Made by a program: the position numbers and the translations under genes. Below the pieces are notes generated by a model. It did not search any database and was not told the origin of the DNA. It worked only from the letters and a program-made list of their open reading frames with translations. Below, in pieces: positions 20,009 through 20,420 of a stretch of 48,813 bases of DNA. The DNA is from a virus (lineage: Duplodnaviria; Heunggongvirae; Uroviricota; Caudoviricetes). The DNA is taken from positions 1 to 48,813 of IMG/VR virus record IMGVR_UViG_2718218305_000005; one strand, written 5' to 3'. The first letter of the stretch is position 1; each line of letters opens with the position of its first letter.

Positions 20009-20212
20009 ATGAACCCTGAAGAAATGAATCGGCGCATAAGTCGCCTGGAAAATGAAATTGCTGAACTGAATAAAAAATTGTCGGTGCAGATTCCTTCCGA
20101 AGATGAAAAAAAACGCCGCGATGAGCAGTTTGCAGCGTTTTACGATTATTGTATTGAAGTTACTCGCAGGAATTTTGTGAAGATTTTTGAGGAGAGTAAA
20201 TCTCTTCAGTAA
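20009..20212 (+). CDS. Hypothetical coiled-coil protein inserted between holin and endolysin
   Basis: 67-aa ORF with GGGGAGAG SD, 3 nt after the holin stop. Confidence 0.4.
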   Translation: MNPEEMNRRISRLENEIAELNKKLSVQIPSEDEKKRRDEQFAAFYDYCIEVTRRNFVKIFEESKSLQ

Positions 20213-20420
20213 GCTTAATGGAGGACTCTGCAATTAATTCAGGAAGGTCCGCAAGGTCATCTGTCAGTGGGAATGATGAAAAATCGGCGGCAGTTCTGTT
20301 AAGAATTGTTTTAACGAATTCCTTTTCATTATCCGGCAACAAGTTGATTAGAGCTACGACAGCTTGCCTGAGTGCGATTAAATCAGCAAAAGTTTGTTTT
20401 GGTAGATTTGGATAATCCAT
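20160..20420 (-). CDS. Hypothetical protein (convergent, overlaps the 3' end of 20009..20212)
   Basis: 86-aa ORF from MDYPNLPKQTF... with strong GAGGTGA SD. Confidence 0.45.
   Translation of the reverse strand: MDYPNLPKQTFADLIALRQAVVALINLLPDNEKEFVKTILNRTAADFSSFPLTDDLADLPELIAESSIKLTEEIYSPQKSSQNSCE

Follow-up and report, generated by a model that had tools for sequence, protein, structure and literature searches.

The window analyzed here, that is, the whole 48,813-nucleotide (nt) stretch of the IMG/VR record IMGVR_UViG_2718218305_000005, is an Escherichia coli lambdoid prophage that resembles Shiga toxin (Stx) phages, and the subject of this work is a pair of small convergent genes located in its lysis cassette, between the holin (S) and endolysin (R) genes. 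The left border of this insert is a class II holin gene of the phage 21 S type (19790–20005, plus strand; Pfam PF04971, Phage_holin_2_1, E = 7e-33), and the right border is the gene for an R21-like endolysin (20532–21065, plus strand; PF00959, Phage_lysozyme, E = 6e-25), the N-terminus of which is hydrophobic and Gly/Ala-rich in the style of signal-anchor-release (SAR) endolysins; an Rz-like gene of the DUF2514 family comes after the endolysin. Judging by these domains, the cassette qualifies as phage-21-type, with a pinholin and an endolysin for which SAR behavior is predicted. The first open reading frame (ORF) of the pair encodes a 67-amino-acid (aa) protein (p67; 20009–20212, plus strand, that is, the late strand), starts with an ATG 3 nt past the holin stop codon and is preceded by a GGAG-like Shine-Dalgarno (SD) sequence. 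The second encodes an acidic 86-aa protein (p86; 20420–20160, minus strand), a member of PHROG 2572, with the SD sequence GAGGTG. The two ORFs overlap at their 3' ends by exactly 53 nt (20160–20212, both strands). In a preliminary description of this DNA, the holin, the endolysin, a coiled-coil ORF of 67 aa following the holin on the same strand and an 86-aa ORF with an SD sequence on the opposite strand were placed at the same positions, with an estimated 3' overlap of about 50 bp, and all these features are borne out here.

All residues of p86 (1–86) match positions 1–86 of the 86-position PHROG 2572 profile (E = 3.2e-49, 165.9 bits), and the ORF is intact in 94 of approximately 103 related loci. 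Like p67, the protein is named 'hypothetical protein' in all databases, the sources being E. coli, Salmonella and E. albertii. The DUF1823 label that it bears in PV340549 and related PhiR12 records was rejected because the match covers only residues 12–42 and scores 13.2 bits (E = 0.11), compared to the Pfam gathering threshold of 25. The protein is acidic (isoelectric point 4.3, net charge approximately -7.5, grand average of hydropathy (GRAVY) -0.18), and no hydrophobic or transmembrane segment and no signal sequence are evident in its sequence. The best AlphaFold2 models from each of two runs contain helices at residues 8–27, 30–48 and 56–75, with a mean predicted local distance difference test score (pLDDT) of about 70 and a low-confidence tail (pLDDT below 50 for residues 79–86). 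Foldseek comparison of two p86 AlphaFold models with PDB and BFVD gave no match with an E-value below 2, and sequence and profile searches of PDB retrieved only designed helical proteins (E = 0.0035). For both p86 and p67, scans of Pfam and NCBIfam produced nothing above threshold, and PADLOC-DB 2.0 yielded no defense family at E ≤ 0.1. The literature on DUF1327/ydfR, on genes in the holin–endolysin interval and on overlapping genes of enterohemorrhagic E. coli contained nothing on this pair, the sole relevant item being a study of YdfR and RNase E (see below).

Given that the copies in the lineage that includes the window (lineage 1) are too similar to each other, diverged lineages are required for a test of coding. 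An exhaustive profile search for p86 homologs recovered P0074 (93 aa, 49% identity) and P0075 (89–93 aa, 41% identity); the large repeat proteins P0076 and P0079 as well as P0077 also matched and were discarded as repeats or a frame artefact. Between lineages, the ratio of non-synonymous to synonymous substitution rates (dN/dS) in the 86-aa frame is 0.27–0.43, differences are least frequent at the second codon position and most frequent at the third, and the indels are in frame. When the 57 ungapped N-terminal codons were examined in all six frames, the 86-aa frame was the only one free of stops and showed the lowest ratio of non-synonymous to synonymous differences per site (pN/pS, 0.36–0.59) in all five between-lineage comparisons. 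The plus-strand shadow ORF opposite the gene (20218–20415), which shares third codon positions with the 86-aa frame, was rejected on account of its stops in other lineages and its higher pN/pS in the same five comparisons; within lineage 1 (the window compared to locus L002), the shadow frame has the lower value, 0.28 against 0.53 for the 86-aa frame. The N-terminal 26 codons of the 86-aa ORF show, within lineage 1, three synonymous and one non-synonymous differences. As far as the codon-level evidence goes, the 86-aa gene is certainly real and protein-coding.

The two diverged lineages retain not only this gene but also its convergent setting. In lineage 3, the gene is located between an S21-type holin and the endolysin and is convergent to a DUF1327 fusion of 174–243 aa that ends in ...FLQELKLSQQE. 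In lineage 2, it lies between the Rz-like and the small terminase genes, in contigs that match Salmonella phage Fels-1 with 91% identity in the terminase region (about 45% of the query), and is convergent to a stand-alone 73-aa ORF, which starts with a 1-nt overlap on the Rz stop codon (TGATG) and is 43% identical to the window 67-aa ORF over the last 35 residues (E = 7e-6). The partner ORFs end with a similar C-terminal motif in all lineages, sequence homology being shown for lineage 2 only. Lineages 2 and 3 have a convergent overlap of 59 nt, in the same phase as the 53-nt overlap of lineage 1. In the window, both ORFs have their final 17 codons and their stop codon within the overlap, which, on the p86 side, covers the predicted end of helix 3 plus the low-confidence tail; substitutions are sparser here (3 in 53 nt) than elsewhere in the region. 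Thus, the pair is found at two insertion sites, the S–R gap and downstream of Rz, and, as judged from these alignments, it is the architecture of the gene pair, rather than p86 alone, that is conserved in three lineages.

In the partner protein p67, the N-terminal half is a coiled coil and the C-terminal part a conserved module, KKRRDEQFAAFYDYCIEVTRRNFVKIFEESKSLQ; p67 is highly charged (GRAVY -1.03) and not membrane-like. The protein aligns to positions 121–183 of phrog_2091. The DUF1327 domain (PF07041) was not detected in the 67-aa ORF, whose similarity to DUF1327 proteins (169–263 aa) is confined to the extension C-terminal to this domain. The partner module is found in three settings: (i) at the C-terminus of DUF1327 fusions, always together with the 86-aa reverse gene, (ii) at the N-terminus of 185–222-aa proteins (phrog_1085), and (iii) as a stand-alone ORF, as in the window. 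Of 119 sampled loci, 86 have a partner frame that is open through the whole 400-nt flank (the long form), whereas six have the 67-aa form; the long open frames are consistent with the DUF1327 fusions, where the frame stays open across variable linkers in proteins of 169, 183, 203, 211 and 243 aa. Going by these alignments, the 67-aa ORF represents the partner in its minimal, stand-alone form; in most cases, the partner is joined to DUF1327 (YdfR).

The composition of the window allele raises the possibility that only the 86-aa gene is functional here, the 67-aa ORF having arisen as a by-product when recombination took place in the shared coiled-coil segment. Such an event would have removed the DUF1327 or the alternative C-terminal domain and left a short open frame that continues into sequence antisense to the 86-aa 3' flank. 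The allele indeed looks chimeric, with bases 20009–20152 resembling the proteins that carry the module at the N-terminus (86–92% identity) and bases 20060–20531 resembling the DUF1327 fusions (92–95% identity); the stand-alone form is rare, as the above counts of six and 86 loci indicate; and the dN/dS of the partner frame between lineages is a weak 0.4–1.0, so that part of its conservation could be attributed to an embedded hairpin (see below) and to the overlap. However, an equivalent stand-alone partner, the 73-aa ORF translationally coupled to Rz, is present in lineage 2, and a second, different stand-alone 67-aa allele with a distinct N-terminus (P0022) was identified. Moreover, the exact 67-aa protein of the window is encoded on approximately 400 contigs, in at least two different prophage backgrounds, and the partner differences within lineage 2 (L027 compared to L114; 13, 5 and 12 at the first, second and third codon positions, respectively, dN/dS 0.45) spare the second position. 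We consider the by-product scenario doubtful and, on the strength of the sequence comparisons, the partner gene very probably real. Existing annotation is in conflict on this point because of the overlap of the forward and reverse genes: the Prokaryotic Genome Annotation Pipeline calls the 86-aa reverse ORF and presents the YdfR-family fusion as a C-terminally truncated pseudogene (RefSeq E. coli loci L009, L010 and L011, 802–1137), and in the 2H10 record, the full 183-aa forward gene is called and the reverse ORF is omitted. The conservation of both frames resolves this disagreement between the forward fusion and the reverse ORF.

The preliminary description took holin and endolysin genes to be usually adjacent, which does not hold for this family. 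We compared related phage-21-type cassettes, namely those of H-19B, 2H10, PhiR12, several Stx phages and Qin-like prophages, and in every cassette examined, S and R are separated by 0.35–1.3 kb. The gap is filled by a 115-aa DUF1327 (YdfR-family) gene alone in H-19B and in an E. coli strain (L024); by a 169–211-aa DUF1327 protein together with the same 86-aa reverse ORF in PhiR12_1, 2H10 and many Qin-like prophages; and by a 185–222-aa protein, with or without a different reverse ORF, in other prophages. A different 185-aa gene occupies the gap of L013, and other reverse ORFs are found in L003, L012 and L025, of which L003 (Stx2_14040) and L025 (strain 94-3024) show yet another arrangement, with a 233-aa reverse ORF. 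Among 5426 complete E. coli genomes, 709 (~13%) match part of the interval and 293 (~5%) have at least 80% of it, and the module is also present in Salmonella and E. albertii prophages. The preliminary description held that its reading would be undermined if related phages carried the same sequence as a conserved part of the holin–endolysin operon with a known function; comparison with the related S21–R21 cassettes shows that the same sequence does recur in the S–R interval of relatives, but no known function is attached to it. Given that the module is missing from H-19B and L024, where the cassettes are otherwise homologous, and from other cassettes, it is not an integral lysis gene. The short YdfR protein of H-19B (L026) ends in ...KTPPLA where the long fusions read ...KTPPTALRSEKDD, and CCCACCACTGG is part of the palindrome that marks the right junction of the insert. 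A deletion between short CCACC repeats, with the loss of the coiled-coil module and the 86-aa gene, may have given rise to the short form.

Several putative signals surround the 86-aa gene. Its SD sequence, GAGGTG (20429–20424, minus strand), is located 3 nt before the ATG, and TAAGGA is found at the equivalent place in lineages 2 and 3. A hairpin, AAAACGCUGC ... GCGGCGUUUU, leading into a U8 tract (20106–20141, minus strand), is a candidate intrinsic terminator of the gene; it begins 18 nt past the 86-aa stop codon, is embedded in the 67-aa coding sequence (codons KKRRDEQFAAF) and has a folding energy of -12.4 kcal/mol (z-score -2.2). All three lineages have the hairpin at this position, and 88.8% of the aligned cells are paired, compared to 40–69% after sliding of the partner columns. 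A G-C pair is replaced by A-U in lineage 3, at the cost of Arg to His and Ala to Val changes in the partner frame, and one pair of the window hairpin is U-G on the minus strand but would turn into a C-A mismatch if read on the plus strand; this pairing pattern lends slight support to a hairpin that is read on the minus strand. The generalization that the hairpin is intact only in the company of the 86-aa gene was dropped, as it holds for three of the four loci lacking the gene and is broken by L012.

The candidate promoter of the 86-aa gene (20488–20529, minus strand) includes the motif ATATTTATCAGGATTTATCGG (20529–20509), which adjoins the start codon of the endolysin on the other strand and contains a -35-like TTTATC (20516–20511), followed by a 17-nt spacer and a -10-like TATGTT (20493–20488). 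The pattern ATATTTATCAGGnTTTATC followed by a 17-nt spacer and TAT(G/T)(T/G)T is kept in all three lineages, and the upstream motif is kept even in lineage 2, where there is no endolysin or other ORF opposite. Among the sigma-70-like sites upstream of the gene, this one ranks first in the window and L118 and second in L027; a simple consensus promoter scan did not call it. No SD sequence was found before the endolysin ATG, where the upstream sequence is AACCGATAAATCCTGATAAATATCC. A conserved A/T-rich direct repeat, GATAAATCCTGATAAATATCC (20507–20534), lies in front of this ATG and coincides with the proposed minus-strand promoter region. The overlapping palindromes GGCCAGTGCCCACCACTGGTGGG (20455–20477, not assigned to a strand) form the right junction of the variable insert, and homology with cassettes carrying other cargo (L003) starts at this point. 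If the promoter call is right, they would be located in the 5' untranslated region of the 86-aa mRNA; the palindromic segment folds no better than shuffled sequences (z-score -0.3 to -0.9).

This layout could also be taken to indicate that the interval encodes an antisense RNA regulator of lysis, in which case the important product of the minus strand would be an RNA, the ORF being secondary. This RNA would pair with the late S-to-R mRNA, and the ratio or timing of holin and endolysin production would be set either through processing of the resulting duplex (e.g., by RNase III) or through transcriptional interference. Compatible with such regulation, the whole predicted minus-strand transcript (from ~20480 to ~20106) is complementary to the holin–endolysin late mRNA, the candidate promoter adjoins an endolysin start that lacks an SD sequence, and both the convergent overlap and its phase are conserved. 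Nevertheless, the 86-aa ORF is free of stops and constrained as a protein, with the dN/dS values given above; in lineage 2, the module lies after Rz and so cannot come between S and R; it is missing from many functional phage-21-type cassettes; and no Rfam family was found, the only match being GcvB on the minus strand, in the hairpin/U-tract region, which was rejected as sub-threshold (19 bits compared to the gathering score of 42). Because of the protein-level constraint, the post-Rz lineage and the module-free cassettes, antisense control of lysis timing appears unlikely and, in any case, less likely than an accessory module.

Accordingly, the interpretation that we favor, with a probability of roughly 0.55, is that the ~0.45-kb interval is a horizontally mobile two-gene accessory module inserted in the variable S–R gap of a phage-21-type cassette. 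A small accessory module was among the options of the preliminary description and is now well supported: the pair travels together in three lineages and at two sites, it forms a compositional island (40.0% GC compared to 55.1% in the holin and 54.9% in the endolysin gene), and related cassettes exist without it. Thus, two hallmarks of morons, namely presence or absence at the same gene boundary among close relatives and a base composition unlike that of the flanks, are both observed. Under the accessory module scenario, p67 would be translated from the Q-antiterminated late lysis mRNA, as suggested by its start 3 nt past the holin stop, and the 86-aa gene would be a separate moron-type transcription unit on the opposite strand, similar to lambda bor, with its own SD sequence, a weak sigma-70-like promoter adjoining the endolysin start and a hairpin–U8 terminator inside the partner coding sequence. 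Late transcription would run antisense across the whole 86-aa unit, so that p86 and p67 are expected to be mutually exclusive in time, p86 being produced while the late operon is silent (in lysogeny or early infection) and p67 late.

Several observations weigh against this interpretation. The strand that is transcribed and the timing are inferred. The promoter score of 8.0 is within the range of shuffled sequences (median of the best scores 6.9, 95th percentile 10.3), and the same motif is located upstream of R in cassettes without the reverse gene (H-19B and L013), so the motif may belong to R rather than to the 86-aa gene. The covariation in the hairpin comes from essentially one event, the U-tract is degenerate in lineages 2 and 3, the hairpin folds equally well on the plus strand, and its stem is perfect in L012, a locus without the 86-aa gene. 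The 15 non-synonymous and 5 synonymous differences counted within lineage 1 in the 86-aa ORF, outside the overlap, are near neutral; the between-lineage dN/dS of the partner frame reaches 1.0; and the partner module occurs also without the 86-aa gene, as the N-terminal part of the 185–222-aa proteins. Finally, the searches of Pfam, NCBIfam, PADLOC, PDB and BFVD gave no family, fold or defense-system match that could serve as a functional handle.

Among known systems, the closest parallels to an accessory module come from morons. In phage lambda, bor is a lipoprotein gene located downstream of Rz, on the strand opposite to the late operon. Morons, as defined by Hendrix and colleagues, reportedly possess their own promoter and terminator and are expressed when the late operon is off. 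The module shares with bor and other morons a small opposite-strand gene located at the lysis genes, an atypical base composition and absence from close relatives, and in lineage 2, it has the same place, downstream of Rz, and orientation as bor. No sequence or fold similarity between p86 and bor was detected; unlike bor, p86 is acidic, predicted to be helical and devoid of a signal sequence, and the reverse gene is always accompanied by a convergent late-strand partner, with a 3' overlap and a terminator-like hairpin inside the partner, its promoter being only a candidate. The Rz/Rz1 genes, similarly, are overlapping frames inside the lambdoid lysis cassette, but these are nested on the same strand and encode essential lysis proteins, whereas the overlap described here is antisense and involves just the 3' ends, and a cassette can work without the module.

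The other relevant comparison is with YdfR. In E. coli K-12, ydfR sits between essQ and rrrQ; the K-12 protein (103 aa) presumably lacks the coiled-coil module and has no adjoining 86-aa gene, and such a YdfR-alone arrangement is seen in H-19B and L024. We know of no lysis function for YdfR. The 67-aa ORF occupies the same S–R gap in the same type of cassette, and in most relatives, its sequence is the C-terminal extension of a YdfR-family protein; unlike YdfR, the window ORF has no DUF1327 domain. The 309-bp ydfR gene of the K-12 Qin prophage encodes a DUF1327 protein that was reported to bind the N-terminal catalytic half of RNase E and to co-purify with RNA (PMC13232886). Through this connection between DUF1327 and RNase E, a role of the pair in RNA metabolism may be considered, as a lead only. 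The pair might also be a timing switch in the lysis region, with p86 as an early check, the partner as a late antagonist and the hand-over effected by antisense late transcription. In that case, p86 expressed from its own promoter would restrain a host or phage process, such as leaky action of the lysis genes or an RNase E-linked step of late mRNA; the partner would act either as a stand-alone protein or joined to the RNase E-binding DUF1327 domain; and the 3' overlap with the embedded hairpin would contribute to the mechanism instead of being an accident of history. We regard such a switch as rather improbable.

The convergent arrangement is also reminiscent of type I toxin-antitoxin systems with convergent, 3'-overlapping transcripts, such as par/Fst of pAD1 and txpA/RatA of Bacillus subtilis, in which, as in the module, two convergent units overlap at their 3' ends around a terminator-like hairpin. 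Unlike in these systems, both partners of the present pair are conserved and protein-coding, and neither a small hydrophobic peptide nor a non-coding antitoxin RNA is evident. A toxin-antitoxin-like or anti-phage defense pair carried as prophage cargo, with RNA-level coupling via the convergent overlap, would nonetheless account for the inheritance of the two genes together at two different sites and for the layout with a hairpin in the shared region, and a separate AT-rich two-gene cargo with weak PD-T4-10 similarity is located just downstream, so cargo does accumulate in this part of the prophage. Such a pair is hard to reconcile with the lack of PADLOC matches for either protein, with the GRAVY values of both and no evident transmembrane segment, and with the behavior of the partner, which, unlike a free small toxin, is in most cases one domain of a larger late protein and occurs also without the 86-aa gene. 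Accordingly, we view a toxin-antitoxin or defense function as very unlikely, and an accessory module remains the preferred interpretation.

Some features of the neighboring genes and of the related cassettes deserve mention. The AT-rich cargo consists of two genes (39.6% GC; 21724–23483, plus strand) located between the Rz-like gene and the small terminase gene and encoding a 156-aa and a 430-aa (DUF6575) protein with weak PADLOC matches to PD-T4-10 A and B (E = 1.3e-5 and 2.8e-4, respectively); these genes may represent anti-phage defense cargo at the classic Rz–cos moron site. Upstream, inside the late operon and about 40 nt before the holin start, there is a strong terminator-like hairpin of 13 pairs, AGGGACCATCGG...CCGGTGGTCTTT, followed by the T-run TTTATTG (19722–19751, plus strand), which is presumably read through by the Q-modified polymerase. 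The dual-start region of the holin (19790–19801) reads M-Y-Q-M, compared to M-K-S-M in the 2H10 allele and in phage 21; the extra N-terminal residues lack a positive charge, and antiholin behavior could be affected. ARAGORN found no tRNA genes across the whole window; Stx-type relatives often have tRNAs upstream of the lysis region (compare L024). With respect to the other occupants of the S–R gap, the 233-aa reverse ORF (1764–2465 in L003 and 1114–1815 in L025, both on the minus strand) is unannotated and overlaps the 3' 250 nt of an annotated forward ORF; no Pfam, PHROG or PADLOC match was obtained for this ORF (Stx2_14040 and E. coli 94-3024), and probably, one of the two frames is not real. 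A second kind of convergent pair, with a 21-nt overlap, occupies the same gap in E. coli O113:H21 FWSEC0010 (L012, 1501–2469) and consists of a 222-aa forward protein that combines the coiled-coil module with another domain (phrog_1085) and a 106-aa reverse gene (phrog_1853).

The conserved pair is best regarded as phage accessory cargo of the moron type with an unusual, conserved convergent overlap, and it resides inside the operon that decides when prophages of the Shiga toxin type lyse the host. It is a compact and testable gene pair of approximately 0.5 kb that is linked to the RNase E-binding YdfR family. Should the pair have no effect on lysis timing, late mRNA stability or superinfection, it would be one more uncharacterized prophage cargo; if it does affect any of these, the finding would bear on toxin release and phage yield.

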